From the NCBI GenBank assembly GCA_016938675.1, contig JAFGUF010000014.1:6668-70667 (forward strand): DNA of 64,000 bases, written 5' to 3'. The notes beneath the pieces are model-generated. The model ran no database searches, was not told where the DNA came from, and worked only from the letters and a program-made list of their open reading frames with translations. Origin of the DNA: Clostridia bacterium (GTDB lineage: Bacteria > Bacillota > Clostridia > Christensenellales > UMGS416). How positions within the stretch are numbered: position 1 is the first letter of the stretch; each line of letters starts with the position of its first letter. This document shows, piece after piece, positions 8,171 to 40,753 of this stretch. Made by a program: the position numbers and the translations under genes.

Positions 8171-8219
8171 AATATCCGTTCCCCCTAAAGTCTATATGCA
8201 TTATAATTATTGTCCAGCA

Positions 8220-20869: not shown

Positions 20870-20900
20870 TTAACTACCTTTTTATTACCCTTTCACTTTT

Positions 20901-22364: not shown

Positions 22365-22390
22365 CTTTTCTCCTAACAGCAACAATCATA

Positions 22391-23044: not shown

Positions 23045-23149
23045 TTTTGTTAGTCTCCTTGTGTACTATAATTTTCAAATTCATAATATTGAATAAAAAT
23101 TGCTTTTTCCATCCCCCTGAAAGCTTTGCTTTCTTTCCCCCTTTAGCAA

Positions 23150-23440: not shown

Positions 23441-23443
23441 ATT

Positions 23444-23863
23444 TTACTTTATTCTATATATCGTTACTTCCACGCAGTCTTTTGATGCTGCTTTTAGCTC
23501 ACCTGCGTATGTGTCCATTGCAAGGTATGCATACTTCCCATTCATATCGCACAGGAACTTCGGCGTAGTGCGTATCTTGGCGTCTCCTCTTTTCAGATTG
23601 ATATACCCTTCGTTTTCTATGGATATTATCTCGCCGTCATCTGTCTCTATCCAGTACTTGGCGAAGACATGGGCGATTTCCTCGCTCACTTTAGTGTTCC
23701 AGTCCGCGCCGCCCGGGCATACCTTGCCCTTGATACCGGCGCCTTCGAATGTGCCGCCAGTAATAGGAATAATAGTAAGCTCGCCTTCAGGCGTTTGCCC
23801 CACCCTTTTGCTCTCGCCAACTTTAACTAGCAAAGACATCACCCTTTCGCCTGTAAGCTCCAT
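23444..23863 (-). CDS. DUF3237 (UPF0311) family protein
   Basis: 139 aa. ...IPITGGTFEG..IKGKV.PGGADW... is typical of DUF3237 as I recall it. Confidence 0.6.
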   Translation of the reverse strand: MELTGERVMSLLVKVGESKRVGQTPEGELTIIPITGGTFEGAGIKGKVCPGGADWNTKVSEEIAHVFAKYWIETDDGEIISIENEGYINLKRGDAKIRTTPKFLCDMNGKYAYLAMDTYAGELKAASKDCVEVTIYRIK

Positions 23864-23864
23864 A

Positions 23865-24659
23865 TTATTTATCCTCTTGTTTCAGCCAATTAAGCCCGGC
23901 CAGCAGGGATCTATTCCAGAAGTTAAAGTCATGCACGCCGCTTTCGGCCAGCCATTCATGGGCATAGCCAATCTCAGATAAGAACTCATGGTAGTCTTTG
24001 TTTTGCTCATAGAGGAAATCCTCCGTGCCGCAGGCTAAGAATATCTTCGGTGCGTTTGCGCCGATGTTTTTCGCCAGATGCTTCGGGTCCTTGTCGGTGC
24101 CTAGTAGCTTATCCAGTTTGCCGAATGTATGCTCATAGTAGCTGAATGGCGCAATGTGATTAATATCCTCAGGCTTCATGTTGACTATCTGGTCTGTAAT
24201 AAGAGCCGATGAAAGTGCTATTATCGCGCCGAAAGTGTCGCAGTATTTCAGCCCGTTTCGCACTGCGCCGTATCCGCCCATTGAAAGGCCGCCGATTATA
24301 GTATCTTCTCTTTTATCTGACAGTGGGAACATTTTTCTGGTAATTTCAATCAGCTCTTCGCCTATAAATGCGCCGCAAAACTCGCCAGTTGTTTCATTGT
24401 CCAGATAGAATCTGTTGCCTCCATCCGGCATTATCACGGCGTATCCCCTTTGATATGCCCATTCCTCTATTCTGGTTCTCAATAGCCAGTCCATCCTGTT
24501 GCCGGAATACCCGTGCAGCAGGTAAATAGTAGGGAAAGGTCCGCCGCTGTATTTTACAGGTGTGCCGTCAAATAGCATCTGCTCAACAGGCAAAACAGCC
24601 GTAAATGATGTTGCGCCCTTCATGGACTGCGAATAATAGTTAATGCTTAATACTGCCAT
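23865..24659 (-). CDS. alpha/beta-hydrolase esterase (esterase D / CE1-like)
   Basis: Nucleophile elbow GLSMGGYGA. I prefer the start at MAVLSINYY (24659), which has AAGGAG 8 nt upstream. The track ORF extends further into the upstream gene. Confidence 0.7.
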   Translation of the reverse strand: MAVLSINYYSQSMKGATSFTAVLPVEQMLFDGTPVKYSGGPFPTIYLLHGYSGNRMDWLLRTRIEEWAYQRGYAVIMPDGGNRFYLDNETTGEFCGAFIGEELIEITRKMFPLSDKREDTIIGGLSMGGYGAVRNGLKYCDTFGAIIALSSALITDQIVNMKPEDINHIAPFSYYEHTFGKLDKLLGTDKDPKHLAKNIGANAPKIFLACGTEDFLYEQNKDYHEFLSEIGYAHEWLAESGVHDFNFWNRSLLAGLNWLKQEDK

Positions 24660-24688
24660 ATTTTCTCCTTCTTCGATGTACTTCAACT

Positions 24689-25534
24689 CTATAGATATAT
24701 AAATGGTTCCTCGGAATCCACAAATACTACAGGTATGCCGCCCATGAATGATTCCATCCACTTGCCGAGGTGCTTCATCCCAGGCTCCTCGCTGCGCTCA
24801 TGCCCAAGCACCAATATAGCCTTATTCATGCCCATCTGGTATGCATCCCTCACATATGCAGGCAGTGTCCATTCCAGTATCTCGCCGCATATTAATACAT
24901 CCAGCTCTCTATGGCGCATCAGATCCATCGGCATATGCTCAACGCCCAGCCCCAGGCTGCCGCCGCCCGGCAGAACGCCCACTCTTTCAACAGGCATTTC
25001 AGGGTCGCCTATTATCTGCACTACGTCCATATCCATCCTGCTTTTGAAAAGAGCGCTCAGCTCCTTAAGCGAAGTCTTGGGTATCTGATAGCATCCGTCA
25101 AACCTGTCTTTGAGCATAAAGCCATCCGGCGCATTTTTTGATGGAGGCATTCTGTATTGCTTCCAGTCCATCTCATCGTCAAAGCCTCGGAATATGCCGT
25201 CGTCGCTGTCAAAATGCATATGGTCGTGGAATCTCCATATCGTTACTCCGGTTTTCTCAATAAGCTCTTTCTTCTTTTTGTATACTTCATCATTCTGCAG
25301 CCATGATGTATCGTCTGCCCCAGTGAACCATGTCGGCTCATGGGTGATTATCATCTCCGCACCGATTTCAGCAGCTTTCTTTATGACGTCTACAGTTGCC
25401 ATAAAGGTAGAGACAACTTTTGTTACTTCATTGTCAAGGCTGCCGGACATCAGCTTGTCGCAGGTTTTTTCATCAGGCAGGCGGTCTACGCCTGTCTTTT
25501 TAATGATTTCATCTATTATATCTCGTACTGTCAT
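24689..25534 (-). CDS. Nif3-like dinuclear-metal-centre family protein
   Basis: ...IITHEPTWF... and ...VLGHERSEEPGM... motifs. 281 aa. Confidence 0.55.
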   Translation of the reverse strand: MTVRDIIDEIIKKTGVDRLPDEKTCDKLMSGSLDNEVTKVVSTFMATVDVIKKAAEIGAEMIITHEPTWFTGADDTSWLQNDEVYKKKKELIEKTGVTIWRFHDHMHFDSDDGIFRGFDDEMDWKQYRMPPSKNAPDGFMLKDRFDGCYQIPKTSLKELSALFKSRMDMDVVQIIGDPEMPVERVGVLPGGGSLGLGVEHMPMDLMRHRELDVLICGEILEWTLPAYVRDAYQMGMNKAILVLGHERSEEPGMKHLGKWMESFMGGIPVVFVDSEEPFIYL

Positions 25535-25568
25535 TTCCGTTCCTCCGTTCTTTGTATGCCTGCTCCCA

Positions 25569-26462
25569 TTATCCTTTTACGGCTCCCAGCACAACGCCCT
25601 TAATCATATACTGCTGCACAAACGGGAATATAATAAGTATCGGCAGTATTCCAATTATGGCCATTGCCATGCGCACGGATGTGCCCGGCAGGTCTATATT
25701 CTGCGTGCCAAGCAGCGCCGCGTTGGATGCGCTCTTTAGGAACTGTATGTTGTCCATTATCCTAATCAGCAGGTTCTGTATTCCGTACATCTTCGGGTCT
25801 GTTATATAGTACAGTCCGTTTATCCAGTCATTCCAGTAGATAATGCCGGTAAATAAGCTTACCGTAGCAATAACAGGAATAGAAAGCGGCAGCATTATGC
25901 TGAAAAATATGCGTATTTCGCTCGCTCCGTCTATCTGGACAGATTCAATTATCGATTCATGCACCGAGTTCACATAATAGTTTCTTACCAAAAATACATT
26001 AAATGCAGTTACCAGAAAGTTGGGGACTACCAGCGCCCAAATAGTATTTTTAATATGGAATATCTGCGACCACATAATATAGGATGACACGATGCCTCCG
26101 TTAAAGAGCATGGTAAAGAATATAAAGAACGCCATGACGTTTCTCAGCCTGAAGTTCTTCCTCGCCATAGGATAGGCAAGCATTGCTGTAACGAGCACGC
26201 CGATAACCGTTCCAAGGAATGTAACCATGATTGAAATGCCGTAGGCGCGCAATATTGTGGCGCTTTGCCTTACCATATAATAATATGAATCAAGGCTTAA
26301 TTTCGACGGGAAGAATGTATATCCACTGGATATAAGCACGTCTTCGCTGGTTACTGAAGCTACAGCAATAAGTAGGATAGGAAGCAGCGCCAGAACAGAA
26401 ATTACCGACAATACTATCGTTGCAAATTTCCTGAATTGCTTTGTTTCTATGTTTTCTTTCAT
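25569..26462 (-). CDS. carbohydrate ABC transporter permease (LplC-like)
   Basis: Six TM helices and an EAA-like loop (IDGASEIRIFFSIMLPLS). Confidence 0.85.
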   Translation of the reverse strand: MKENIETKQFRKFATIVLSVISVLALLPILLIAVASVTSEDVLISSGYTFFPSKLSLDSYYYMVRQSATILRAYGISIMVTFLGTVIGVLVTAMLAYPMARKNFRLRNVMAFFIFFTMLFNGGIVSSYIMWSQIFHIKNTIWALVVPNFLVTAFNVFLVRNYYVNSVHESIIESVQIDGASEIRIFFSIMLPLSIPVIATVSLFTGIIYWNDWINGLYYITDPKMYGIQNLLIRIMDNIQFLKSASNAALLGTQNIDLPGTSVRMAMAIIGILPILIIFPFVQQYMIKGVVLGAVKG

Positions 26463-26471
26463 GTCTTCCTC

Positions 26472-27407
26472 CTAAAAGAGCGCGTTTTCCGAGTCGATTT
26501 TCCGCACCAGTGCATTGGCGGAGACCACCAGAATAAATCCTACAAATGATTGGAAAAGCGCAGCCGCCGCGGACATGCCAACGTCATTTAGCTGCATGAG
26601 CCCCCTGTAAACATATGTATCAATTGTCTGAGTCACGTCAAATAGCCTTCCTGAGTTCTGCGGCACCTGATAGAATAGCCCGAAATCCGAGAAGAATATT
26701 CTTCCTATGGCCATCAAAGTCAGTATGATTATTGTCGGCTTGAGCATCGGTATTGTTATGCGAAATATCTGCATAGTCTTTGATGCCCCGTCAAGCTCAG
26801 CAGCCTCGAATATTCCCTTGTCAATGCCTGCAATGCTCGCCATATAGATTATTGAGTTGACGCCCATGTACTTCCAGATATGGACGATAATCAAAATGAA
26901 GGGCCACGGCTTGATATTGGAATACCATGAGATTTCCTCCATGCCCAGAGGCTTTAAGATTGAATTATTTATAAAGCCTGAGTCAGCATTTAAAAAGGCA
27001 TATACTACATATCCTATTACAACCCATGAAAGCATATTCGGAAGCAGAATTGCCGACTGGAAAAACTTCACCCTCAGCTTCTTTCCCATCTCGAATAATA
27101 ATATCGCAACGAATATTGCTATCACCGTACCAATTATTATAAAAGCCACATTGTAAAGAACCGTGTTTCTTGTCATTATCCAGGCATCCCTGGTCTTGAA
27201 AAGAAATCGGAAGTTGTCGAATCCGCTCCAGTCGCTGCCGAATATGCCCTTCACATAGTTATAGTCCTTGAATGCGAGGAAAACGCCGAACATTGGAATA
27301 TAGCTGTTTACAAATATATATATCAGTCCGGGCAGCGATATCAGAAGAAGCGGCCAGGTCTTCACAAGTTTGCTTTTCTTTTCTATCTTTTCTTTCTTTT
27401 TTTTCAT
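26472..27407 (-). CDS. carbohydrate ABC transporter permease (LplB-like)
   Basis: EAA loop LDGASKTMQIFRITIPMLKP. I prefer the start at MKKKKEKIEKK (27407). Confidence 0.85.
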   Translation of the reverse strand: MKKKKEKIEKKSKLVKTWPLLLISLPGLIYIFVNSYIPMFGVFLAFKDYNYVKGIFGSDWSGFDNFRFLFKTRDAWIMTRNTVLYNVAFIIIGTVIAIFVAILLFEMGKKLRVKFFQSAILLPNMLSWVVIGYVVYAFLNADSGFINNSILKPLGMEEISWYSNIKPWPFILIIVHIWKYMGVNSIIYMASIAGIDKGIFEAAELDGASKTMQIFRITIPMLKPTIIILTLMAIGRIFFSDFGLFYQVPQNSGRLFDVTQTIDTYVYRGLMQLNDVGMSAAAALFQSFVGFILVVSANALVRKIDSENALF

Positions 27408-27504
27408 TGTTATACCCCGTTTCAGAAGGAATAATTGTGATATAAATTGTAAATGGGGATTAAATATCCCCACCTACAAATCTGATAATTATCCTTTTAA
27501 CCGA

Positions 27505-29046
27505 TTATTTATTGCTTGCTACCCATGCATCAAGCTGAGTTTGCTTTTCTGCAATAATGGTTCCAAGGCCTGCTTCGTCCAGTCTCTCAAGGAATACAGG
27601 TATTTCTGTTTCTGGGTCAATGCTTCCGCATATTAATCCCGGAAGGAACTGGCTTATTACGTTCGTTACTGCTGTATACTCTGTTTTTACATTGCTGTTG
27701 TCGAATGTAAAGCCCATTGCTACAGATGTCTTTGCGTTCTTGTTCTGCTCAAGCTCCCATGCCAATGACTCAACATTTGTGCCGCCCATTGGGTACATTA
27801 TAAAGAAGTTGCCCAATGTTCCGCAGGAAAGCTGTGATGTGTAAGGAACGGTTGCAGGGTCTAATCCCTCAGGATAGCTAACTGTGCCGTCGCCGTTTTG
27901 AACATAGTCGCGTCCTTCAATGCCGTAGATAATCAGGTTGCAAACTTCTTCGTCTGTGAATGTCATGTTAAGGAATTTAAGTGCTGATTCAGGAACATCA
28001 GATGTTGATGAAATCATCCATGTCAGCGCATTAATTGCAGTAGTATCTAGGAATGCAGAGCCAATCATCTTAGCGCCAAGGTCGTATCCGCCGCACTGTG
28101 CTTCCAGTGATGCTGCTGTGTCTTCTTCAGGATAGCTGTATGATGCGATATATCCGAAGTAGTTGCCTGCAGACATTAATTCAGCTGCTGTGCTTGATGT
28201 TGTAGCTGCGTCCTTCATAACTAGGTCATTTGTGTACCATGTGCGTGCCAGTGAGCAGAGGTCTGCAAACTCATCAGATGCATAATAATCTACAACTGTC
28301 AGTTCGTCATTCATCAATACTCCCTTTGGCTCGTAATAGTTATCTGTGAGGTAGTCAACATTTTCAACAGTAAGGCCAAGGCCTATGTTTCCTGTGTTTA
28401 CAGCTGCAAGAGGAGTCATGTCTGGGTATGCTGCCTTTACTTGCTCCAGTATGCTTGTCAAATCGCTTGTGCTGTTTACCTTGCTCATGTCAAGGCCCAG
28501 CTCATCTGCGATGTCCTGCCTGTATACAAACATCGGCGTAAGTGCAATTGGCTTATATGTAGGAAGGCCGTAAATTCTGCCCTCAAAGCTAGTTGCTGCC
28601 AGCCAGTCGTCACCTATGAGTTCCTGTGATTCGGCTGCATTTTCGCCCATCATGTCTGTAATATCAAGGCACATGCTTGTGCTGATAGCTGTGTTTAAAT
28701 CTCCAAGGCTCTGGAAGACGTCAATCTTCTCTCCGCCCTGCAGTGCCAGGCTAACCTGTGAGGAATAGTCCCAGATAGCGATCGGCATCAATTCAACCTC
28801 TACGCCGATTTTTTCACGGGTAATCACGTTGATTGCTTCCTCTACTTCAGCTAATGCCTCTTCTGTAGGGGTGTTGTTGAATGTAGCATATGCATAAACA
28901 ACTTTGTCATATGATACAGTTTCAGTTTGTGTTTTGCCGTCTGCAGATGTAGTGTCAGATGCAGTTGAATCGGGTGTTCCGCATGCTGCCAGCACCATTC
29001 CGGCGACAATTGCCAATACTAGAAATAATGTCTTAAAAACTTTCAC
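27505..29046 (-). CDS. extracellular solute-binding lipoprotein (LplA-like, 513 aa)
   Basis: Lipobox VLAAC. The size and position upstream of the two permeases fit. Confidence 0.8.
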   Translation of the reverse strand: MKVFKTLFLVLAIVAGMVLAACGTPDSTASDTTSADGKTQTETVSYDKVVYAYATFNNTPTEEALAEVEEAINVITREKIGVEVELMPIAIWDYSSQVSLALQGGEKIDVFQSLGDLNTAISTSMCLDITDMMGENAAESQELIGDDWLAATSFEGRIYGLPTYKPIALTPMFVYRQDIADELGLDMSKVNSTSDLTSILEQVKAAYPDMTPLAAVNTGNIGLGLTVENVDYLTDNYYEPKGVLMNDELTVVDYYASDEFADLCSLARTWYTNDLVMKDAATTSSTAAELMSAGNYFGYIASYSYPEEDTAASLEAQCGGYDLGAKMIGSAFLDTTAINALTWMISSTSDVPESALKFLNMTFTDEEVCNLIIYGIEGRDYVQNGDGTVSYPEGLDPATVPYTSQLSCGTLGNFFIMYPMGGTNVESLAWELEQNKNAKTSVAMGFTFDNSNVKTEYTAVTNVISQFLPGLICGSIDPETEIPVFLERLDEAGLGTIIAEKQTQLDAWVASNK

Positions 29047-29188
29047 AATAATATCCTCCTTCTTAAGATGGCTTTATTCTAGCAAATAAGCAGCAGGCTT
29101 TTATATTAAAAATGAGCCTATTTTTATTAAAAATAAGACTTTATTTGTGAATTTTGATATAAATCCAGTCGTTTTTATATAATTTTCA

Positions 29189-30769
29189 CTAATTCTGCCT
29201 GTATTCATTTGGTGAAATGCCCACACTTTTTTTGAAAAGCGTTGAAAAATAAGAATAATTATCAAACCCTACATCCTGTGCTATGTCGCTTACCTTAGCA
29301 TCAGTATTTTTAAGCAGCCATTTCGCGCGCTCTATTCTATACTCCCTTATATAGTCATTCAGGTAGTTGCCTGTCTTTTTGTAGTATAGCTTGGCAAGGT
29401 ATTCAGGAGCCAGGAAGAAAATAGTCGCCAGCTCATTTCGCCCGATATTCTGCATGTAGTGCTCGTGTATATAGGTGTTTATCCTTTCTATCAGCGTGCT
29501 GGTTTTGGCAATCTCCTTTTCGTATCCGAAGGACCTCTCCAGCAGGTAGTTGGCCCAGCGCAGCATGTCCACCGATGACTTCGCCGCCTTGTTTGATAGC
29601 TTCGCTGAGGTCTCATCATAAAAGAGTCTGGTGGCCTGTATGCCCGACTGCAAAAGGTGAGCGTAGGTCGCCTGAAGTATCTCCTGCTTTATCATGTATA
29701 GGCCTCTTTCATCCAGCGTGCGATTGCTGGTTTTGAGCCTTATCATCTCCTTTATGTAGTTCAGCAATGATACCTTATCGTGCTTTTTCAGCAGCACTGT
29801 CAGCTTCCCGACATCCAGTATCTGCATTTCATCGCTGAGTGGTATGACGGCCTCATCCTCTGTGAAGGGCTTGCCGTAGAAGACAACATTATGCAGCACC
29901 AGCTGCTCCAAAACAGACGCCTTTTCATAGAGCGATTCAATATGGCAAGGGTTGCCTATGCAGCAGGTGGCCTTCACCTTCAGCGTCCTGCTGCAGTGGG
30001 ATGTCACCTTTGAGCACAGGCTTTTCACATCTGTTCCTTCCGTATATTCAATAGTAGTCAGCAGCCAGATTTCGCTTTCGCCGGCTTTTCTTACCACGCA
30101 GTAGTTTTCATCATTTCCGCATAGTGTATTCGAGTGTATATTTTCCAGGCTGTAATAGAGCAGCTCCTCGCCCAGCTCCTCGAGCTGATGCTCATAGTCT
30201 GTTACCTTGGTCATAATCAGGCGGTATTCTTTGTCTGAATCGATAGGCAGCCTGCGCACCTCAATTTCCTTCTTTATTCTTTCCCTGCTTTGCTTGATCA
30301 GCCCGCTGTATAGTACCAGCCAAAAATGCAGCTGCTCCTGCCGGGTGTTTTGGGATATCCATTCCTCATAGCGGCTGCTTTCCTCAAGGCGCCTTTTCTC
30401 CTCAATTTTCGCAATAGTCTTCTTTATGGATAGCTCCATGATATCCGCGTCATAGGGCTTTGTCAGGTAGCCTGCAGCTTCCCACTTGATGGCGCTGGCG
30501 GCATACTCAAACTTCTCGTGGCAGGTGAGCAGAATGAACTCAATATCCAAAGCTTCTTTGCGTATCCATATCAGCAGGTCAAGCCCGGATTCTTTCGGCA
30601 TTTCAATATCACTGACGATGATGTCTATCTTGCTCTGCTTTATTATGCGCTTTGCCTGAGAGGCGCTATTGGCCGTGAAGACCTCGCCTATGCCGAGCAT
30701 TTGCCAGTCAACGGAGTCTTCTATGACCTCCAGCGTATGTATATCATCATCTACTATAAGTAAATTCAT
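29189..30769 (-). CDS. response regulator with AraC-type HTH output (YesN-like)
   Basis: Receiver MNLLIVDDD...DIIVSDIEMP, with a C-terminal AraC HTH (...VSDIAQDVGFDNYSYFSTLFKK). Confidence 0.85.
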   Translation of the reverse strand: MNLLIVDDDIHTLEVIEDSVDWQMLGIGEVFTANSASQAKRIIKQSKIDIIVSDIEMPKESGLDLLIWIRKEALDIEFILLTCHEKFEYAASAIKWEAAGYLTKPYDADIMELSIKKTIAKIEEKRRLEESSRYEEWISQNTRQEQLHFWLVLYSGLIKQSRERIKKEIEVRRLPIDSDKEYRLIMTKVTDYEHQLEELGEELLYYSLENIHSNTLCGNDENYCVVRKAGESEIWLLTTIEYTEGTDVKSLCSKVTSHCSRTLKVKATCCIGNPCHIESLYEKASVLEQLVLHNVVFYGKPFTEDEAVIPLSDEMQILDVGKLTVLLKKHDKVSLLNYIKEMIRLKTSNRTLDERGLYMIKQEILQATYAHLLQSGIQATRLFYDETSAKLSNKAAKSSVDMLRWANYLLERSFGYEKEIAKTSTLIERINTYIHEHYMQNIGRNELATIFFLAPEYLAKLYYKKTGNYLNDYIREYRIERAKWLLKNTDAKVSDIAQDVGFDNYSYFSTLFKKSVGISPNEYRQN

Positions 30770-30780
30770 CTCTTTTCCCT

Positions 30781-32523
30781 CTATGCCTTTGATGGCGTGT
30801 TCTCCTTGATTTCGTGCAGCGGCTTAGCGGGAATATATATCCTGCTTTTTCCGCCGTGTGGCTCGGTGTTGTATATCTCCAGCAGGTCGCCCCGCTCATA
30901 CATCAGCTCCAGCATATTCCTCACACTCCACAGGCCTATCCTGCTTCCTGTGTCCTCGTCGTATTCGATGCTGCCGTTCATATAGTCGATTACATCCTGC
31001 GGATACCCTTTTCCGTCGTCCTCTATTTCTATTACCAGCATTTCTTCATCTTTGTATATCTTCTTGCTTATCCTGATTAGTATTGTCAGCACATATTCAG
31101 TGGAAACGGCATGCTTGAATTCATTTTCTATGAAGGTCTGTATGATCATCTGCGGTATCAGCCAGCCCTCCAGCTCCTTGGGAAGGTCAATAAAGTGGAA
31201 AGTGGAGCCTGCGTATTTAAGCTCCTGCATTTTAAAGTAATTTTCCACATGGCGTATTTCTTCCTTAACGGTCACAGTATGCAGGCTGGACTTAAACATA
31301 TACCGAATGTTTTTAGAGAGGGCATCGATATATTCATTCACCTGCTTTTCCTTGCCCTTGCTGCCTAGGCTGTGTATTGTGGTTATGGCATTCAGGAAAA
31401 AGTGCGGGCGTATCTGCAGCCTGATAATTTTCAGCTGGGAATCCTTAAGTTCAATTATTTTCTCGTATGATTTTATCTTGAGCCCCACTATCTCATCCAT
31501 CAGCTTGTTGAAGGAATCCTTAAGGTGGGTAAACTCCGCAGTGCTGTATTCGCCCTCAAAATGCAGGGTGTATTCGCCCTCGTCCACGCGCTTCATGCCA
31601 TGCGCCATTTTTTTCATCGGGCTAATTATTTCTTTCTGAATATACCTTACAAGGAGTATCCCAAAAACAATCGTCAGCAAAATCACGCCAAGCACAGCGC
31701 TCATGCTCAGCCTTGTCTGGCTCCACATGCTTGTGTTTCTTACGATGCTGTAGAGCATTATCTGCCCGCTTTGCACTACATAATCTGCAAGGAAAGTGTT
31801 TTTAATATGGATCTCATCAATTTTAGCTCCCAGCAGCTGCTCCCCTACTTCTTCCCCGGATACCTCCTGCACGCTTCCGTCCGAGCCCGTCAGCACATAT
31901 GTCTGCCCGGTGTAGTCACCTACAGGAATAGTCTCCATAAAGTGCTCCGTGCTGGTATATGCAGCTGCCGCACGGCCGTTATATACGAACATTTTGTAAA
32001 GATAGTTTTTTCCGTTAAGTTCAGCAAAGCCCCATTTTGCGGCTATATCATCTCTTAGTGTGCACTCCTTTGTGAAGTCTCTCAGCGCTTCTTTATCCCA
32101 ATAGGATATCTCCACGACTTGCGCGTCCAAGCATATGTCATAATGATTGTCCGCAACAATTAGGCATTCCACACTTTTATCATTTAATAAGACGTCGCCC
32201 ATATAATTGATGATGTCCTGAGCGGCGTAATACCTTTTGGATTCTTCAGGGCTCTTTAGCAGCTGCAGCTGAGAAGAATTCTGCACCAGCACGTTTTTTA
32301 GCACGGTGTCCATCTGCGCCACGCGGCTCTTTAGCTCGCCGCCGTAGAGGCTGAGAAAATTCTCAGCGCCCTGCTCAACCTGATTCACCAAAATAAAGTA
32401 TGATGAAGCGGAGTAGAACACCAGCACAAAAACCAGCAGCAGCATAAGCGTAATCATGAAAAGCAGAACCCGCTTTAGCAGAGATTTCTTCGTGTTCATT
32501 TGCCGTCCCTTCTTTTTTTGCAA
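30781..32523 (-). CDS. sensor histidine kinase (YesM-like)
   Basis: Two TM helices flank a sensor domain, followed by HAMP. H-box LQIRPHFFLN and ATPase motifs are present. The start could be M1 or M9. Confidence 0.85.
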   Translation of the reverse strand: MQKKKGRQMNTKKSLLKRVLLFMITLMLLLVFVLVFYSASSYFILVNQVEQGAENFLSLYGGELKSRVAQMDTVLKNVLVQNSSQLQLLKSPEESKRYYAAQDIINYMGDVLLNDKSVECLIVADNHYDICLDAQVVEISYWDKEALRDFTKECTLRDDIAAKWGFAELNGKNYLYKMFVYNGRAAAAYTSTEHFMETIPVGDYTGQTYVLTGSDGSVQEVSGEEVGEQLLGAKIDEIHIKNTFLADYVVQSGQIMLYSIVRNTSMWSQTRLSMSAVLGVILLTIVFGILLVRYIQKEIISPMKKMAHGMKRVDEGEYTLHFEGEYSTAEFTHLKDSFNKLMDEIVGLKIKSYEKIIELKDSQLKIIRLQIRPHFFLNAITTIHSLGSKGKEKQVNEYIDALSKNIRYMFKSSLHTVTVKEEIRHVENYFKMQELKYAGSTFHFIDLPKELEGWLIPQMIIQTFIENEFKHAVSTEYVLTILIRISKKIYKDEEMLVIEIEDDGKGYPQDVIDYMNGSIEYDEDTGSRIGLWSVRNMLELMYERGDLLEIYNTEPHGGKSRIYIPAKPLHEIKENTPSKA

Positions 32524-32644
32524 AATTATCTTCCTCTATTTATTCGCCGTTAAAAGCCTGTTTCTATATCAATATTCTATCATATTTCTCTGCAAAATGA
32601 TAAATAAGCTTAATAACAAAGAAATATTCAAAAAACATGCAAGA

Positions 32645-32673
32645 AAGCGGCCTGCACTGAGTGCGAGCCGCTT
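32645..32673 (-). terminator. hairpin after the heliorhodopsin gene (T-tracts on both strands)
   Basis: aagcggcctgcac-tga-gtgcgagccgctt. gttttt follows on the plus strand and gttttttg lies 8 nt away on the minus strand. Confidence 0.5.
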
Positions 32674-32717: not shown

Positions 32718-33497
32718 CTAAGGCTGCATAACCCCTGAAAAGACCAGCCACGCCAGCACGGTCTTGGCGCACAGGCTAAGGACTATATACACCCTTTCAC
32801 CGTAAACATATTCTTTCCACTTGCCCACACTCTTGTACTGCAGCACCATGTTTATCGGGAAGAGATTGAAGAATACGAAGTACGAGCCGAAGATAGCGTA
32901 TACAAACCACGGTACCTTATCCAAATCCGAGTTTCCAAAAGCAAACATGAAAATAATTACCCACACTGCAAGCCCCGCTACGGAACCGAATATAAATGCT
33001 GACCAGTTTGTTTTCTCCGTATACTGGTTGATTCTTTCCATTAGAAGCCCGAAGAGGTTCATCGAAGCGTTGAGCACAAACAATGCTATAAGCAAGCCTA
33101 TGTCATATACGCCAAATAGCAGCGCAATTAGAACAATCATTACGGATGAGCTTATGGCGTATTCATACCATCTGTATGGGTTTATACCTTTTGATATGTT
33201 TTTATTATAATTGTCGTTGATTTTCGGCATTACAATAATGAAATGAAACAATGCCGAGAGAAACAGGAATATTGACACGCACGCACCGAAGGGCACATCA
33301 AACACCTTTTTGTTGTCCGTTACCAATGTCATCAGGTTTGTATCGAATGTCAGAAAGTTAGAAAACACTGGCAGCTTGAATGCCTTAATCTTATCAATAG
33401 TAAGCGCAAAGCTAAGCATCAGAGCTCCCTGAACGAAGTGAAGTATGCCCATAGTAAAGTTGAACTTCCTTAAGGATTTAAAGCTAATCTCCTTCAT
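32718..33497 (-). CDS. heliorhodopsin (7-TM retinal-binding protein, inverted topology)
   Basis: It aligns by eye along its whole length with recalled HeR-48C12. Matching blocks: LSALFHFI, RWYEYAISSSVMIVLIA (48C12 RWVEYSLSSSVMIVLIA), NASMNLFG, GERVYIVLSLCAKTVLAW (48C12 GERAYIVLSLVAKSALAW). Schiff-base Lys is K245 (32763..32765) and the counterion Glu is E112 (33162..33164). Confidence 0.85.
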   Translation of the reverse strand: MKEISFKSLRKFNFTMGILHFVQGALMLSFALTIDKIKAFKLPVFSNFLTFDTNLMTLVTDNKKVFDVPFGACVSIFLFLSALFHFIIVMPKINDNYNKNISKGINPYRWYEYAISSSVMIVLIALLFGVYDIGLLIALFVLNASMNLFGLLMERINQYTEKTNWSAFIFGSVAGLAVWVIIFMFAFGNSDLDKVPWFVYAIFGSYFVFFNLFPINMVLQYKSVGKWKEYVYGERVYIVLSLCAKTVLAWLVFSGVMQP

Positions 33498-33508
33498 ATT
33501 ATACCTCC

Positions 33509-34309
33509 TTATTGATTCGCTTTTCTTTTAAAAGTCTTGTTTGCTGCAATCATGGCCGCTGCAGCCAATGCCGCAAGCGCAGCCGACACAGCTATTATGA
33601 CGCCTGTGTATGCTCCGCCGAATCCTGAGGCGCTGGTATGCTTAATCAGAATTCCTACGTATGCCCATATAGCAACCAGCGCATACGAAACGTCTTTGAA
33701 CTTTATAATCACAGTACCGGTTATCAATAGCCCTACTATAACCACAGCTATCATCCAGATTGGCTGGGCAATAGAAAAACCGTTCCAGCCTATGCTTACT
33801 AGGTAGGTTGTTACGTTCGCAATTAATGCTATCGTTATCCAGCCATAGTATACGCTGAATGGAACTCGCACGAATGCCCTTTCCTTCTTTGTTAATGCTT
33901 TGCTGTTTATCCTGACATAGGCCAGGGTGAGAGATGCGAATATTGCCAGCATTAGAATTAATGATATGCCTATCTTCTGATAATGCCAGGCGAATATCCA
34001 CGCCGTGTTGGCAACTGAAGACAGTGCAAAGCACATTTTTATTCTATGTACGGCGTCAGTGCTGTGCCCTCCCTTTCCCTTGAATGCACCAAAGCTATAG
34101 AGCACAAATAGCAGAAGCAGCAGGTATATTACTCCCCATATTGAGAAGGTTATCCCTGCCGGCGCAAATAGATTCGGGTACGAATCCGATACTGTGCCTG
34201 TGCCTATGTTATTAATAGGCAGAATATTTGCAAGTGCGTTAACTGCGACCATTGCCGCAAAGGTAACTGCATTTACTATATATAATAATGTGTATTTTTT
34301 ATCTTTCAT
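33509..34309 (-). CDS. TspO/MBR-related multi-pass membrane protein (266 aa)
   Basis: ...NALANILPINNIGTGTVSDSYPNLFAPAGITFSIWGVIYLLLL... resembles long Firmicutes proteins annotated as TspO/tryptophan-rich sensory protein (from memory). There are 11 nt to the heliorhodopsin start. Confidence 0.5.
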   Translation of the reverse strand: MKDKKYTLLYIVNAVTFAAMVAVNALANILPINNIGTGTVSDSYPNLFAPAGITFSIWGVIYLLLLLFVLYSFGAFKGKGGHSTDAVHRIKMCFALSSVANTAWIFAWHYQKIGISLILMLAIFASLTLAYVRINSKALTKKERAFVRVPFSVYYGWITIALIANVTTYLVSIGWNGFSIAQPIWMIAVVIVGLLITGTVIIKFKDVSYALVAIWAYVGILIKHTSASGFGGAYTGVIIAVSAALAALAAAAMIAANKTFKRKANQ

Positions 34310-34505
34310 TTTATCTCCTTGTCCTTACATGTTATATGTTTATCTATTGCTTTCAAGCAGGTGGACTGCACCGCTTGATGTGTTCTGATTACCATATTTT
34401 TGTATTGTGCTAATATATTAGTATATATATGTACCTTTTTATTTGATTAAACACATATTTAATTAGCCCTATTAGCGTATACCTCCTGCATATGATTTAA
34501 GCTGC

Positions 34506-34535
34506 AAAAAAAGAAAGCCTCAAGTGAAGCTTTCC
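34506..34535 (-). terminator. intrinsic terminator ending the STAND operon
   Basis: On the minus strand the stem is ggaaagc...gctttc, followed by T7. Confidence 0.6.
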
Positions 34536-34563
34536 TTATGCTTTGATTATTCAATACAGGCGG

Positions 34564-37320
34564 TTATTTTAAGTATTCGTCCAGGTCATTCCAGTCGTCA
34601 GCATCGCCTATTGCATAGTCATTTATGCCCTCGCTTACCAGTCCCCACTCCGCATCGCACTTGTCATAGGAGCTATTATCTATTGTCCTGTCTGCGATAA
34701 AAAATCTTATCATTGATTTGTATATAAGTACTGCGTTTTTATAATCCTGGCTCTTTACAAACAGCGGATAGGGAACCTCCGGATGCCATTTCTGAATTCT
34801 GTTCATCTGCATCAGCTGCATGTTCATATTATTTATGTTTGCGGCCGCCCGTTTTTTTGCTTCCTGTAGGGGCATCTTGTCTCCATAAAGCTGCTTGATC
34901 AGTTCGTTTATCACCTTGATTTGCTCTTCTTTTGTTTTACCTTTTAGGTTCTTTTTCAAGTATACATACGTATAGTTGTTGAATATTGTTTCTGCCGCCT
35001 CTTCATATTTTTTATAGAAATATTCAGAGAATTTATGGGTTAGAAGGAACACTGCAGCTTCGTTTGCATTGCCCAGATAGTGGCAGAATTCGTGGAACAA
35101 TACAGGAATTGTGCTGTAGCTGTCGCAGAATAGTTTCAGGTTTATGCCCACGCTATTGGGCAGGGTCTGGTCGACCACCTGATTATACCTGCTGGTTACC
35201 GGGCCGACTCCCTTTTCGCCGTTAAATGTCGTCCACATTACGTGGCTGTAAGGAGCCATTTTATAGAAGCCCTCTGTCTTTTCTTCGCTGATATCAATAA
35301 GCCTTAGCGGATACTCCCTGAGCAGGTACATAACACCGGGCAGCTCATTTTCCAGTATACGCACTGTTTTTTGAATGTCCCCGTAATTAAGCGACGGATT
35401 AGCGCATTTAAGTATTTCATCCAAAACGTTTGCAAACGTCAGGCTGTCGCAGGTGTCGTATATCCTGACTTCGAAGAATGATTTATTTTTGTCCCAGTCA
35501 ATCAATGTTGATCGCATTCTGATCAGGTCATCAAGCCTCTCTTTTATATCCTTATCATCCTGATTTTCCAGCATATAGGGAAGCAGCCCCACAACCAAGC
35601 ACTGGAGCATAAATTTTGAGAATGAATTTCCGTTTCTGCTGGCAATCAGCATGAAGACAAGTTCCATAGTGAAGTCAATGTTTTCACTGAGGCAGTATCC
35701 AATAAGCCCGCCTTGCATTTCCAAGGCTAATTCGTTTATTTCATTGATTTTTGCTATCTCCTCGCTGCTTTGCATATACAAAGGACTGTCGTATATGTTA
35801 CTCAGCAATGACCTGTATGTAGATTTGTACACCTCGTATTCCTCGTAGAGTTTTTTCATTCTTTCAGAAAGTTCATGGAATCGTTCGAGAACTTCTTTGA
35901 ACAAATCATCCTTAAGCATCAGCTTTCTGCCGGCTGCAAGCGTAGTGCAGCGCACCAATGCGCATATACTCCATCCGAAAACGGTTTCCTGGTCCTTTAT
36001 GCTCTTTTGTTCATCCGCGTTCTGATAATTACTTCTTGAAATAACTATATCTTTTAGTTTCGAGATTATCTCTTCGTTTTCGGTGGGGTTAAATACTAGT
36101 CCTATAAGGGCATCTACTATTTCAGTCTCATCCTTTGATGGCTCTTGCAGTTTGGCAAGGAATATTTCATCTCTTTTTTCTTTGCCTTTTGCGTCCAGCT
36201 TAGTCTTTCCGCTGTATATCCTATACTCGAAATCATTGTCCTGCCTGTCCTTGATTTTTCTTTCTCTTTCCTCGCGCCTTTCCTTCAGCTCAGCCATCTT
36301 CTTTCGCTCGGCCTCCTGACGCTCCTTTTTCTGTTTCTCAAGCTTTGCCAGTTCTGCCTGCCTTCTTACTTCCGCCTCCTTTTCCTCCCTCTTTTTTCTT
36401 TCGGCGTCAGTTTCTATCCTCTTTGCATTTTCCAGCTCCATTTTGCGGTCATCAATCTTCAGCCATGCCGCGTATACCATGATCAGAAGCACTATGCTCA
36501 CACCTATTAATATATAGTGCAGAAGGTAATCTTTTGAAGTCCTTTTTACCCTTAAGTTCTTCAGAACATACTTGTCGCTCGCATTTGAAAGAGCAGGAAT
36601 ATATTCACTTTCATTTTCCTCAATCTCTATAGACAATGTGTCAATATCTTCAAGCATGCTTTCAAGCAATTCAAGCTCCTCAGCGCTGCTTAATCCCAAT
36701 GCAGCGGTATATGCATCCGCCACGTATAACAAGTTGTTTACCAGCTGTGTTCCGAACTCTCCAGTTTTTGTGTCATCCGGCATGTTCCTGAAGCAAAGCA
36801 AAAGGTAAAATAGCGGATTATCATTGTCAACTACTGCTTTTTTAAGTACTAGGTCATCATTCAGCTGAACCCTTCCTTCCACATGGATAGTGTCAAGAAT
36901 TTCATGGCTGCCTTCAAAAACGCCGTTGGCTGTTAAATTCAGCGCAACCAGAGCAGGGTTTGTAACCTCGCATTCATACAGCACTTCATGTTCGTTTTCT
37001 TTGGATTGTTTAAATTCCAGATCGTAAACTGTTAAATAAGGATAATCCGTCTGCAGCGTTTTCAGCTCAAAATTCAAATCATCTGCAGCCACCACATTGC
37101 CTTTCACAAACAGCTGCGAATACTCATTCTGTATGTTCTGTTTCACACATGTGTTTACAATATACTGTACGCGCCTGATATCCCTAGTGTACGGCAGGGC
37201 AATGAATATTCCGGCAAATGCAGCCAGAGTCATAATAATCAGCAGAACAACTTTTATCTTGCTTCCTACTATGCGCCCCTTTGCCTTTTTTATCTCAATA
37301 TCCTTTTGTGCCTGATTCAT
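34564..37320 (-). CDS. 2-TM protein with an extracytoplasmic loop domain, E/R/K-rich helix and a cytoplasmic HExxH domain (918 aa), paralog B
   Basis: TM helices VVLLIIMTLAAFAGIFIAL and LLHYILIGVSIVLLIMVYAAWL. The charged tract is KKREEKEAEVRRQAELAKLEKQKKERQEAERKKMAELKERREERERKIKDRQ. HEFCH lies at 35080..35094. Confidence 0.8.
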   Translation of the reverse strand: MNQAQKDIEIKKAKGRIVGSKIKVVLLIIMTLAAFAGIFIALPYTRDIRRVQYIVNTCVKQNIQNEYSQLFVKGNVVAADDLNFELKTLQTDYPYLTVYDLEFKQSKENEHEVLYECEVTNPALVALNLTANGVFEGSHEILDTIHVEGRVQLNDDLVLKKAVVDNDNPLFYLLLCFRNMPDDTKTGEFGTQLVNNLLYVADAYTAALGLSSAEELELLESMLEDIDTLSIEIEENESEYIPALSNASDKYVLKNLRVKRTSKDYLLHYILIGVSIVLLIMVYAAWLKIDDRKMELENAKRIETDAERKKREEKEAEVRRQAELAKLEKQKKERQEAERKKMAELKERREERERKIKDRQDNDFEYRIYSGKTKLDAKGKEKRDEIFLAKLQEPSKDETEIVDALIGLVFNPTENEEIISKLKDIVISRSNYQNADEQKSIKDQETVFGWSICALVRCTTLAAGRKLMLKDDLFKEVLERFHELSERMKKLYEEYEVYKSTYRSLLSNIYDSPLYMQSSEEIAKINEINELALEMQGGLIGYCLSENIDFTMELVFMLIASRNGNSFSKFMLQCLVVGLLPYMLENQDDKDIKERLDDLIRMRSTLIDWDKNKSFFEVRIYDTCDSLTFANVLDEILKCANPSLNYGDIQKTVRILENELPGVMYLLREYPLRLIDISEEKTEGFYKMAPYSHVMWTTFNGEKGVGPVTSRYNQVVDQTLPNSVGINLKLFCDSYSTIPVLFHEFCHYLGNANEAAVFLLTHKFSEYFYKKYEEAAETIFNNYTYVYLKKNLKGKTKEEQIKVINELIKQLYGDKMPLQEAKKRAAANINNMNMQLMQMNRIQKWHPEVPYPLFVKSQDYKNAVLIYKSMIRFFIADRTIDNSSYDKCDAEWGLVSEGINDYAIGDADDWNDLDEYLK

Positions 37321-37382
37321 CTTTTCTCTCCTTTAAATCTCTTTAGCAATTATTTTATCTACCTATCATTTGATTATTGATG

Positions 37383-40214
37383 TTATTTTAAGTAGTAGTC
37401 TATATCACTCCAATCCCTATCATGAATTACATAATCGTTGATTCCCTCACTCACTAATTCCCATTCCGATTCGCATTTGTCAAAGTATTCTATATCAATA
37501 TCCTTGTCGGCAACGTGATACCTAACTATTGCTTTGTACATCAGCTCCGCGTTAGCTCTGTCCTCATATTTTGTCAGCAGCGGATAGGAAACTTCCGGAT
37601 GCCATCTCTGCATTCTGTTCATCTGTATCAGCTGCATGTTTATATTATTTATGTTAGCAGCCGCCAGTTTTTTTGCTTCCTCCAGGGGCATATTGCCTCC
37701 ATAAAGCTGCTTTATCAGGTCATTTATCACCTCGATCTGCTCATCCTTTGCTTTACCTTTCAGGTTCTTCTTCAAGTACACATAAGTGTAGTTGTTGAAC
37801 ATTGTTTCGGCCGCATCTGCATATTTTTTATAGAAATATTCAGAGAATTTATGGGTAAGCAGGAACACGGCGGCTTCATTGGTATTGCCCAGATAGTGGC
37901 AGAATTCATGAAACAGTACGGGTATTGTGCTGTAGCTGTCGCAGAACAATTTAAGGTTTATGCCTACGCTGTTTGGTAGAGTCTGGTCGACCACTTGGTT
38001 ATAGCGGCTGTTTACAGGCCCGACCTCCTTTTCGCCGTTAAATGTCGTCCACATTAAATGGCTAAAAGGTGCCATTTTATAGAAGCCCTCTGTTTTTTCT
38101 TCACTGTTATCTATAAGCCTTAAAGGATACTGCCGCAGCAGGAACATTACGCCCGGCAGCTCGGATTCTAATATGCGTACTGTTTTTTGAATGTCCCCGT
38201 AATTAAGCGATGGATTTGCGCACACGAGTATTTCCTTCAGAACATTTGCAAACGTATAGCTGTCGCATGTGTCGTAAACCCTTACTTCAAAGAATGACCT
38301 GTTTTCGGCCCAGTTGATAAGATTTGAGCGCATTTCTATCAAATCATCGACCTTAGCCTTCACCAGTTCGTTATCCTTGTTTTCCATCATATAAGGCAAG
38401 AGCCCGATTATAATGCATTGCATCATGAATCTAGAATATTCAAAATTTTTCCTGCTGGCTATCATAGTGAATATTATATCCAATGCGAACCCGGGGTCCT
38501 CGCTGATACAGTATGGCATCAGCCCGCCTTTCATCTCTTCAGACAGTGCGTTTAGCTGCTCTATCAGGTGTATTTCCCTAACGCTTTGGGTTTTTTCCTG
38601 CTGCTCCTTATTAAGGCTCATAATCAAGTTATAGTATTCACCCTCTCTGAATCGCTTTTCCTGCAGATATTCACGATAAAGCTTCGAACTTTTTTCAGCC
38701 AGTGCATTGTATCTGTCGAGAACAAGCTTGAAATGCTCAGTATTTAATTTTATTCCTTTGCCCGCTGCAATCTCGCAGCGAATCATCGCGCAAATTCCCC
38801 AGCCCAAAGCCGTCTCTGCATCTTTTATCTTTTCCATATTATCTTGGCGCCGATAGCTGCTGTTTCTTGTAACAATGTCCAGCAAATAATCTCTAATTAC
38901 CCTGTTGTCCGTCGGGTTGAATACTAGGCCTATCAATACATCAAGCACCGCTTTGTCATCCTCAGCTGCTTCCTTAAGCCTCTCTAGGAATATTGCGTCA
39001 CGTTTCTCTTTGCCTTCTTCATCCAGTACTACCTTGCCGCTGTATATCTGATACTCGAATTCGTTGTCCTGTCTTTCCCTTATTCGTCTTTCCCTTTCTT
39101 CGCGCTTTGCCTTCTGCTCCTCCATCTTTTTGCGTTCTTTTTCCTGCTGCTCCCACTTTATTTTCTCCAATCTTTCCAGTTCAGCTCTTTCCTTGGCCTG
39201 TCTTTCCCTTTCAGCCTCCAGCCTTCTTTCTTCTCTTTCTCTCTCCAGCTTTATTCGCTTTGCTTCCCGCTCTCTGGCTTCTCTCTGCGTTTTTTCAGCG
39301 TCTGTTTCTATCTGCCTGCATTCTTCCAGGTCATCCTCGCAGCTATTTTTGTGCTTTCTTGCCAAAAATATAAGAATGAAGAAAAATACGCTGGCTGCAA
39401 TACTTAAATAAAAATATACGTAATCCTTATGTTCCTTTTCTAGCTGCAGGTTTTTAAGTATGTACTTTTTGCTTTCATCCGAGTTGTTGGCTATATATGT
39501 ACTTCCCTTTGATTCTATCTGTATTGACAGGGTGTCTAAATCAGACATCATATTAGCCACTAGTTCCACCTGCTCTTCAGCACTTAACCCCAAAGCAAAC
39601 GAATATTCCTCCGCAACATGCAAAACATTATATATCAGCTGCTCCTGTCCATTGCCTGTCTTTGTGTCGGCAGGCATATTCCTGAAGCACAGCAATAGGT
39701 AAAAAAGCGGGTCGTCATTATCTACTATAACTTTTTTCTTAAGCAGCGATTTCTCCAGCTTGACTCTTCCCTGAATTTTTACCTTATCCAGCACCTTATC
39801 GCTGTTTTGATATGTTCCATTTATGGTCAGGTTTAAGGCCACCAATGTAGGATTGGTCACTTTACATTCGTAGATAAGTTCATTTTCATCATCCTCTGAC
39901 TCTTTAAGTTCAAGGTCATAGACTGAAAAGTACGGATAATCAGTTTGACTTTTAATTAATGAGAAATTCAAATCATCCGCTGCTGCAAGATTATTTTTTA
40001 TATAGGAATCATCATATACTCTTTGAATGTTTTGCTTTATCCCCTCATTAACAAGATAGCGAACCCTTCTAATATCCGCCGTATAGGGGAGTGCAAAATA
40101 TATAGCTGCTGCGGAAGCTGCAGTCATAATTATGAAAAAAACTATCCAAAACTTTGCCCAGCCTATTCGCACAAGGTTATTTTTTATTTTCTCATCCTTT
40201 TGTGCCTGATTCAT
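37383..40214 (-). CDS. 2-TM protein with an extracytoplasmic loop domain, E/R/K-rich helix and a cytoplasmic HExxH domain (943 aa), paralog A
   Basis: TM1 spans residues 21-42 and TM2 spans 266-285. The E/R/K tract spans residues 296-382 (39069..39329). HEFCH lies at 37896..37910. The N-terminus MNQAQKD and the RBS region are identical to paralog B. Confidence 0.8.
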   Translation of the reverse strand: MNQAQKDEKIKNNLVRIGWAKFWIVFFIIMTAASAAAIYFALPYTADIRRVRYLVNEGIKQNIQRVYDDSYIKNNLAAADDLNFSLIKSQTDYPYFSVYDLELKESEDDENELIYECKVTNPTLVALNLTINGTYQNSDKVLDKVKIQGRVKLEKSLLKKKVIVDNDDPLFYLLLCFRNMPADTKTGNGQEQLIYNVLHVAEEYSFALGLSAEEQVELVANMMSDLDTLSIQIESKGSTYIANNSDESKKYILKNLQLEKEHKDYVYFYLSIAASVFFFILIFLARKHKNSCEDDLEECRQIETDAEKTQREAREREAKRIKLEREREERRLEAERERQAKERAELERLEKIKWEQQEKERKKMEEQKAKREERERRIRERQDNEFEYQIYSGKVVLDEEGKEKRDAIFLERLKEAAEDDKAVLDVLIGLVFNPTDNRVIRDYLLDIVTRNSSYRRQDNMEKIKDAETALGWGICAMIRCEIAAGKGIKLNTEHFKLVLDRYNALAEKSSKLYREYLQEKRFREGEYYNLIMSLNKEQQEKTQSVREIHLIEQLNALSEEMKGGLMPYCISEDPGFALDIIFTMIASRKNFEYSRFMMQCIIIGLLPYMMENKDNELVKAKVDDLIEMRSNLINWAENRSFFEVRVYDTCDSYTFANVLKEILVCANPSLNYGDIQKTVRILESELPGVMFLLRQYPLRLIDNSEEKTEGFYKMAPFSHLMWTTFNGEKEVGPVNSRYNQVVDQTLPNSVGINLKLFCDSYSTIPVLFHEFCHYLGNTNEAAVFLLTHKFSEYFYKKYADAAETMFNNYTYVYLKKNLKGKAKDEQIEVINDLIKQLYGGNMPLEEAKKLAAANINNINMQLIQMNRMQRWHPEVSYPLLTKYEDRANAELMYKAIVRYHVADKDIDIEYFDKCESEWELVSEGINDYVIHDRDWSDIDYYLK

Positions 40215-40243: not shown

Positions 40244-40753
40244 TTATATATCTTCTTTGTTTTTTGCTCCGCTCAGCTTCTGCCTTAAGCAGTCCAGCAG
40301 CAGGTGAAAGTCATATAGTTTTTTCAGCTCCTGCTCTATGTGTGCATCCAGCACTTTTTTTATATCTTCTGAAAACTCATCGGCGACTCTGTAAAAATTA
40401 TTGCTGATAGCCCCCTCATCAAGAAATACAAAGCTGAACCATTCGGTCATCGGATTATCCGTTAGGTATTTTTCCGCCGCCTCCGCATCGCCGTTTTTGC
40501 AGATATCTGAAAATACTTCCAGGTTTTTGACTGCCTGCTTTTTGTCATCGTCATACTCGTCAAATATTGATAGGGTATCCCTTGCAATGATGCTTTTGCG
40601 GGGCGCAGCTATGGCCTTGTCGAGAAACTGTGACTGCATTTCGCACGTAAGCCCTCCTCGTCCAGCATCCCAAATAATATCGCCCTGGTCAACATTGAGA
40701 ATCAGTTCATCCAGTCCAAGTGCCTTTCTTTTTACTTTTAAGTATTCGCTCAT
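40244..40753 (-). CDS. hypothetical cytoplasmic protein (169 aa), operon partner
   Basis: Clean acidic ORF with 38-nt and 29-nt gaps to its neighbours. I recognise no motif. Confidence 0.6.
   Translation of the reverse strand: MSEYLKVKRKALGLDELILNVDQGDIIWDAGRGGLTCEMQSQFLDKAIAAPRKSIIARDTLSIFDEYDDDKKQAVKNLEVFSDICKNGDAEAAEKYLTDNPMTEWFSFVFLDEGAISNNFYRVADEFSEDIKKVLDAHIEQELKKLYDFHLLLDCLRQKLSGAKNKEDI

Follow-up and report, generated by a model that had tools for sequence, protein, structure and literature searches.

We analysed a 64,000-nucleotide (nt) stretch of contig JAFGUF010000014.1 from a Clostridia bacterium, henceforth the window, whose reverse strand carries a heliorhodopsin gene immediately preceded by a gene for a predicted eight-helix membrane protein that may be a distant relative of the TspO/MBR proteins (here the TspO-related gene, protein and family). 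An earlier interpretation made from the letters alone (the sequence-only reading) had described a two-gene, same-strand unit with a TspO-like gene upstream and an 11-nt gap, and the coordinates of the open reading frames (ORFs) agree with it exactly (Table 1). The arrangement has the usual marks of an operon, namely a common strand, a very short gap, flanking hairpins and no internal terminator or promoter. On the 5' side, the terminator hairpin of the preceding gene contains GC and, together with its surroundings (66 nt), has an RNAfold energy of -18 kcal/mol. On the 3' side, a terminator-like hairpin and U run lie 45-85 nt past the heliorhodopsin stop codon, where a terminator scan also gave a match (32657-32637) and positions 32620-32717 fold with -23.1 kcal/mol. 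The 11-nt gap contains no RNAfold structure, hairpin or promoter. Because hairpins flank the unit and the gap holds only a ribosome-binding site, the two genes are likely to be co-transcribed as a two-gene unit. In the 254-nt AT-rich intergenic region upstream we counted 10 promoter-like sites, compared with 7.0 expected from shuffled sequences, and no Rfam RNA, riboswitches included, was detected in or around the operon.

Table 1. Features of the two-gene unit in window coordinates, listed in the direction of transcription.
Feature	Coordinates	Strand	Basis and details
Intrinsic terminator of the upstream 918-residue-protein gene	34505..34537	-	12-bp hairpin AAGGAAAGCUUC-ACUU-GAGGCUUUCUUU, then U run; 5' boundary of the unit
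Promoter-like site TTGAAA-16 nt-TAACAT	34329..34356	-	Consensus scan, 9/12 matches; weak evidence
Ribosome-binding site AAGGAG of the TspO-related gene	34315..34320	-	Sequence reading; ends 5 nt ahead of ATG
TspO-related gene	33509..34309	-	ORF and AlphaFold2 model; 801 nt, 266 residues, predicted 8-helix membrane protein
11-nt intergenic gap	33498..33508	-	TAA-GGAGGTATAAT-ATG; GGAGG ribosome-binding site of the heliorhodopsin gene at 33504-33508
Heliorhodopsin gene	32718-33497	-	ORF and Pfam, NCBIfam and PDB matches; 259 residues; K245, E112, H20, H85, S241, Q220
Terminator-like hairpin	32631..32673	-	AAGCGGCU...GGCCGCUU, then U run; 3' boundary of the unit

Several lines of evidence identify the 259-residue protein as a heliorhodopsin. 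It matched Pfam PF18761 over the entire profile (positions 1-242 of 242) with E 6.7e-100 and 333.8 bits (cut-off 26.7), and the NCBIfam equivalog NF038020 'HeR' with 320.2 bits (cut-off 100), and it aligned over its full length with the PDB entries for TaHeR (6is6; E 1e-62) and 48C12 (6su3; E 4e-51). The motifs ILH20F, LFH85F, RWYE112Y and SLCAK245T could all be read in the ORF. In a HMMER alignment counted by hand, K245, E112, H20 and H85 pair with K241, E107, H23 and H80 of 48C12, so that K245 corresponds to the Schiff-base lysine of helix 7 and E112 to the counterion glutamate of helix 3, and S241 and Q220, near the retinal, pair with S237 and Q213. None of the six varies among 31 aligned relatives. 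Profiles, structures and residue alignment therefore agree with the sequence-only reading, which had named a heliorhodopsin with the Schiff-base lysine, the counterion glutamate and both histidines. The profile comparison that it had proposed placed the heliorhodopsin profiles far above their cut-offs, and no other seven-transmembrane family gave any score.

Heliorhodopsins 62-91% identical to that of the window are encoded by 80 species-representative genomes of a Clostridia/Bacillota subclade, whose carriers include Clostridium frigoris, Alkalibacterium and many metagenome-assembled genomes (MAGs) of Eubacteriales and Syntrophomonadaceae. Heliorhodopsins in general are far more numerous, with at least 576 matches in GTDB species genomes and more than 4,200 protein clusters. 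As judged from sequence alone, the window protein shares its length, helix count, lysine, glutamate, two histidines, serine and glutamine with 48C12 and TaHeR, differs from them in no notable respect, and is a canonical, routine new member of this subclade. Many of its close homologues (P0173, P0184, P0192 and others; ~391 residues) carry a fused N-terminal MORN-repeat domain, a fusion previously reported in anaerobic Syntrophomonadaceae (PMC8612252).

The upstream protein proved harder to place. Its description as TspO-like in the sequence-only reading held for intermediate members of its family but not in any direct comparison of the window protein itself. The 266-residue protein had no NCBIfam match, no match to PF03073 (TspO_MBR) even at E<=10, and no match to another Pfam family. 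Searches of the PDB by phmmer with this protein, and by hmmsearch with two profiles of its family (A2 and A4), returned no chain at E<=10, and hhalign of A2 and A4 against human TSPO (a query checked against PDB 2mgy and 2n02) gave a probability of 0.3-0.9%, with only the helix-5 motif matched. AlphaFold2 predicted eight long helices (pLDDT 90.1), and a separate model of the N-terminal 176 residues (pLDDT 89.5) shows five helices and a short loop helix in a TspO-like order. With both models, Foldseek, which is weak on helical bundles, placed no TspO chain among the best 50 PDB matches and found nothing at E<=0.001. Its matches to xenorhodopsin, G-protein-coupled receptors and Cry toxins (E>0.6) were rejected as non-specific helical similarity.

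In contrast, the wider family does lead to TspO/MBR. The ~265-residue proteins form a uniform family, of which an exhaustive profile search identified 5,779 representatives at E<=1e-3 and 1,294 at E<=1e-30, and a word-indexed search for the same family returned more than 4,000 clusters. A few members are named 'tryptophan-rich sensory protein' at NCBI and some 'TspO/MBR related protein' in UniRef, and most are without a name; we disregarded the UniRef label 'lantibiotic ABC transporter permease' on some members because no ABC-permease family matched any member. Among 141 diverse members, 14 matched PF03073, which was the sole family matched by more than one of them. Scores above the gathering score of 24 were obtained for P0363 (39.9 bits) and P0281 (38.1 bits), whose matches span positions 5-145 of the 145 in the profile, and for P0008 (26.0 bits), a protein with 64% identity to that of the window and encoded beside a heliorhodopsin; all three matches are collinear and take in almost the entire profile. 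The matches fall in the first five helices (residues ~18-166), and a crude hidden Markov model built from three TspO sequences gave the same collinear mapping for helices 2-5.

Compared with characterised TspO/MBR proteins (CrtK of Rhodobacter and BcTSPO of Bacillus cereus; PDB 4uc1 and 4ryi), the family thus has motif and profile similarity over the five N-terminal helices in some members, is likewise rich in conserved tryptophan, and has members that adjoin carotenoid genes as CrtK does. It differs in being ~100 residues longer, with three additional C-terminal helices that contain conserved W215, G219 and I220 and, in closer relatives, K223-H224. Because the intermediate members match PF03073 collinearly, we regard the window protein as a candidate divergent relative within the TspO/MBR superfamily, with five TspO-like helices plus three extra, rather than as a TspO; this assignment is only partly supported. 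TspO itself was first discovered as CrtK within a carotenoid gene cluster, BcTSPO degrades protoporphyrin IX, and the characterised proteins have tetrapyrroles and cholesterol-type compounds, not retinal, as their ligands (PMC4926414).

The sequence-only reading had raised the possibility of a fixed pairing of the two genes and had proposed that the neighbours of related heliorhodopsins be tabulated. We did so for 80 GTDB species-representative loci centred on heliorhodopsin genes (flanks of up to 8 kb) and, in reverse, for 80 metagenome loci centred on the TspO-related gene; individual loci are given below by L numbers. A TspO-related gene lay within 8 kb of the heliorhodopsin gene in 3 of the 80 loci, directly downstream on the same strand in L078 and L027 and upstream in divergent orientation in L022. 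The reverse sample contained a heliorhodopsin in two loci (L131 and L140), 2-4 kb away. A fixed pairing is refuted by these counts, as it is by heliorhodopsins 88-91% identical to that of the window beside which the gene is absent: proximity of the two genes recurs in several orders, yet it is far from fixed.

The closest part of the subclade (>=88% identity) comprises three lineage pairs. The window and L088 both have the two-gene unit, L081 has it and its sister L083 does not, and L001 and L082 are both without it. The heliorhodopsin and TspO-related proteins of L088 are 96.5% and 89% identical to those of the window (gap 1 nt), and the corresponding values for L081 are 90% and 64% (gap 24 nt). 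The window, L088 and L081 share the order and close spacing of the two genes but differ in their flanks: downstream, L088 has a POR gene where the window has a sugar island, and in L081 the flanks are wholly different, with UvdE-DUF1722 and DUF2177 upstream and rubredoxin/rubrerythrin downstream. In both comparisons the TspO-related protein diverges ~3 times faster than the heliorhodopsin, which fits inheritance of the pair together, with losses later.

Random placement of one copy per 3-Mb genome, an estimate that ignores relatedness, would be expected to yield ~0.3 co-occurrences in the heliorhodopsin-centred sample and ~0.16 in the reverse sample, compared with the 3 and 2 observed (Poisson P ~0.003 and ~0.01). 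These values weakly suggest an association above chance, about tenfold in both directions. Proximity was seen, in differing arrangements, in Eubacteriales, another Clostridia MAG, Syntrophomonadaceae, the L131/L140 lineage and Trichococcus. Across 85 non-redundant heliorhodopsin loci, the TspO-related family is near 5-6 and adjacent in 4-5, which ties it among the most frequent immediate neighbours; the maximum for any neighbour family is 8.

The families that recur beside TspO-related genes are a 523-residue Amino_oxidase/FAD enzyme of CrtN/CrtP type (7 loci), DUF1295 (5 loci), UvdE-DUF1722 (4 loci, all adjacent), and CrtO acyltransferase, GT2 glycosyltransferase and DUF2177 (4 loci each). 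The TspO-related and heliorhodopsin families are linked, loosely but recurrently, to each other and to genes for UV and photo-oxidative stress (UvdE, DUF2177 and C30-carotenoid genes). For a large and uncharacterised family, this repeated siting is a clue to its role.

Individual loci illustrate the variety of these surroundings. In L131 (4998-10239), the TspO-related gene and a heliorhodopsin gene (product 51% identical to that of the window) flank opposite-strand genes for CrtO, a GT2 glycosyltransferase and the 523-residue Amino_oxidase, a block that resembles staphyloxanthin-type C30-carotenoid genes; in L140 (1493-5199), the same two genes (heliorhodopsin again 51% identical) flank the opposite-strand oxidase only. 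The published catalogue of ten heliorhodopsin operon-partner groups includes DUF2177, DUF2238, SDR and NAD+ synthetase (PMC11109279). Two of these published groups occur in L081 (219-6350), where genes for an SDR, an unnamed 334-residue protein, DUF2177, UvdE-DUF1722, the TspO-related protein, heliorhodopsin and rubredoxin/rubrerythrin lie in this order on one strand as a compact ultraviolet (UV) and oxidative-stress cluster. L169, from Trichococcus, contains within positions 1-8822, in this order, genes for DUF2238 and heliorhodopsin (1540-2331), the NAD-synthesis genes nadC, nadB and nadA, and the TspO-related gene (8001-8822), the heliorhodopsin and TspO-related genes being 5.7 kb apart. 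In L083 (6905-10572), as in L084 and L085, three same-strand genes come after the gene for an 88%-identical heliorhodopsin. They specify a tocopherol-cyclase-like protein, an SDR and a 536-residue Amino_oxidase/FAD enzyme, a trio that may modify isoprenoids or carotenoids.

With regard to the chromophore, the 40 non-overlapped ORFs of >=150 residues in the window include no Blh/BCD, SQS_PSY, polyprenyl synthase, lycopene cyclase or CrtI-type Amino_oxidase. For these ORFs, the earlier statement that the 64 kb lack blh and crt genes is borne out, and its Firmicute host likewise corresponds to the Clostridia-type organism found here. The neighbouring genes specify a 2-oxoacid:ferredoxin oxidoreductase, a GH13 enzyme, sugar ABC systems, an FGGY kinase and DeoC, and the nearest named relatives are MAGs labelled 'Eubacteriales bacterium'. 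Because of this metabolism and these relatives, an anaerobic member of the Clostridia is a plausible but not proven host. Heliorhodopsins in strictly anaerobic Firmicutes have been described previously (PMC8612252), so that finding one in an anaerobic Firmicute without retinal genes is already known and not new.

Taken together, we consider the two-gene unit best read as a small, lineage-restricted cassette for light and photo-oxidative stress, with a probability of roughly 0.5. The heliorhodopsin would bind retinal scavenged from the environment, since no synthesis genes lie nearby and the classical retinal-forming cleavage enzyme requires oxygen, and by likeness to characterised heliorhodopsins it would serve as a slow-cycling light sensor. 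The TspO-related protein would handle a hydrophobic photosensitiser as its ligand, in all likelihood a tetrapyrrole but perhaps a carotenoid. Expressed together, the two proteins would then equip a cell vulnerable to damage by light and oxygen with a light signal as well as membrane-based protection. We infer this mechanism, as we would any contact between the two proteins. The pair fits the proposal of Bulzu et al. that heliorhodopsins are light switches for the mitigation of oxidative stress in monoderms, turning on defences against light-induced damage in which endogenous porphyrins are the photosensitiser (PMC8612252).

A number of observations weigh against such a cassette. The pairing is rare (~4% of related loci) and patchy, and the heliorhodopsin is an ordinary one. 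No adjacent TspO-related gene is found beside the 88-91% identical heliorhodopsins of L001, L082 and L083-85, and the heliorhodopsin therefore does not require an adjacent copy. The estimate of enrichment is crude, as L131 and L140 represent one lineage and L022 and L027 one family. A ligand can be assigned to the TspO-related family only by analogy, the link to TspO being remote; the window contains nothing light-related outside the gene pair; and co-transcription is itself inferred from sequence features.

Heliorhodopsin function is known in only a handful of cases, each through an operon neighbour. The known pairs are AbHeR with glutamine synthetase, TfHeR with photolyase and OcHeR with the OmrDE ABC exporter, and binding by the heliorhodopsin regulates the operon-encoded partner (PMC9529153, PMC9769723, PMC11109279). 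As in these operons, the window heliorhodopsin gene and its neighbour share a strand, are separated by very few nucleotides and have a single predicted promoter. Unlike theirs, its would-be partner is predicted to be a TspO/MBR-superfamily protein integral to the membrane, the two genes occur together much more patchily, and TspO is missing from the ten partner groups catalogued for 448 heliorhodopsins (PMC11109279). Our literature search for heliorhodopsin together with TspO or 'tryptophan-rich sensory protein' found no paper. As a rare operon variant with a neighbour absent from the published catalogues, the unit offers a modest lead to heliorhodopsin function, and it constitutes a cheap, testable two-protein system.

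The three experimentally studied heliorhodopsins that regulate a product of their own operon are the precedent for a direct partnership. Bound to the TspO-related protein within the membrane, the heliorhodopsin would use light to switch its partner's activity, which could be to bind, export or photodegrade tetrapyrroles. With nothing but a ribosome-binding site in the gap, equimolar co-expression would be favoured, the ordered pair is retained in three genomic contexts (the window, L088 and L081), and adjacency in the opposite order arose independently in L078 and L027. Nevertheless, close relatives of the window heliorhodopsin have no adjacent copy, the two genes are separated by kilobases or carried on different strands in L022, L131, L140 and L169, and TspO falls outside the published partner groups; we judge a direct partnership unlikely. 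It seems to us quite improbable that the ~265-residue, eight-helix family as such is an unlisted membrane partner, bound by light-activated heliorhodopsin that would thereby control the handling of photosensitising tetrapyrroles or carotenoids. If true, this would tie heliorhodopsin signalling, in concrete molecular terms, to the way in which monoderm anaerobes are protected from photo-oxidative damage mediated by porphyrins.

Alternatively, the two genes may be fortuitous neighbours, brought under a shared promoter without a functional link by a rearrangement in one Eubacteriales lineage, with the other co-occurrences reflecting variable accessory regions. The partner is not nearby in 77 of 80 heliorhodopsin and 78 of 80 TspO-related loci, no neighbour family reaches more than 8 of 85 loci of the heliorhodopsin clade, and the window is a mosaic (a 13-kb indel relative to L088, TIR proteins, Imm11 genes and paralogue arrays). 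This explanation is possible but doubtful, as it has to accommodate proximity that is seen, with varied gene orders, in four or more orders or lineages and at about tenfold the random rate both ways, the independent association of both families with the same kinds of light and UV genes, and the persistence of the pair while its flanks change. A role of the TspO-related protein in chromophore supply, with uptake, binding or delivery of retinal or of a carotenoid precursor on behalf of the heliorhodopsin in an organism unable to make retinal, would agree with the absence of blh and crt genes from the window, the frequent location of the family beside C30-carotenoid genes (CrtO, GT2 and CrtN/P-like) and the origin of TspO as CrtK of a carotenoid cluster (PMC4926414). 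However, the ligands of characterised TspO proteins are tetrapyrroles and cholesterol-type compounds rather than retinal (PMC4926414), most heliorhodopsin loci are without a TspO-related gene, and the TspO-related family (>5,700 representatives) is far larger and more widespread than its overlap with heliorhodopsin genes, all of which makes such a role very improbable.

Downstream of the two-gene unit, a 13-kb sugar-utilisation block (19685-32523) specifies a GDSL lipase, a GH13 enzyme, a kinase, an esterase, NIF3, a sugar ABC transporter and regulators of YesN/YesM type. In the window this block lies between the heliorhodopsin and POR genes, and it is absent from the nearest relative, L088 (7639-8893 compared), whose POR is 94% identical. 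A histidine kinase and an AraC-type response regulator within this block (29189-32523) were considered as signalling partners of the heliorhodopsin and rejected, as they form a YesM/YesN-type pair attached to the sugar ABC transporter. Because L088 lacks the block and has the POR gene directly after the heliorhodopsin gene, the kinase and regulator are not conserved neighbours.

On the other side of the unit, two tandem paralogues of 918 and 943 residues (34564-40214, reverse strand; 59.6% identical) have no Pfam or PADLOC match and contain a K/E-rich coiled-coil middle region and a C-terminal HEFCHY (HExxH-type) motif. Ahead of them on this strand lie a 169-residue ORF (40244-40753) and a gene for a 951-residue DUF4062-AAA-TPR protein of STAND NTPase type (40792-43647), and the same paralogue array is found in L088. 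Farther away, two TIR-domain proteins are encoded at 11273-12775 (forward strand) and 15555-16955 (reverse strand), one with weak ThsB-like matches and the other combining TIR with leucine-rich repeats, near a gene for a 503-residue protein with a weak RHS-repeat match; these may be defence or conflict genes. Finally, positions 1-8000 have a GC content of 30%, compared with ~44% elsewhere in the window, and contain genes for two Imm11-family immunity proteins (3778-4338 and 6293-6859) along with several ORFs without a family match; this region has the appearance of a foreign insert or of an immunity island for polymorphic toxins.

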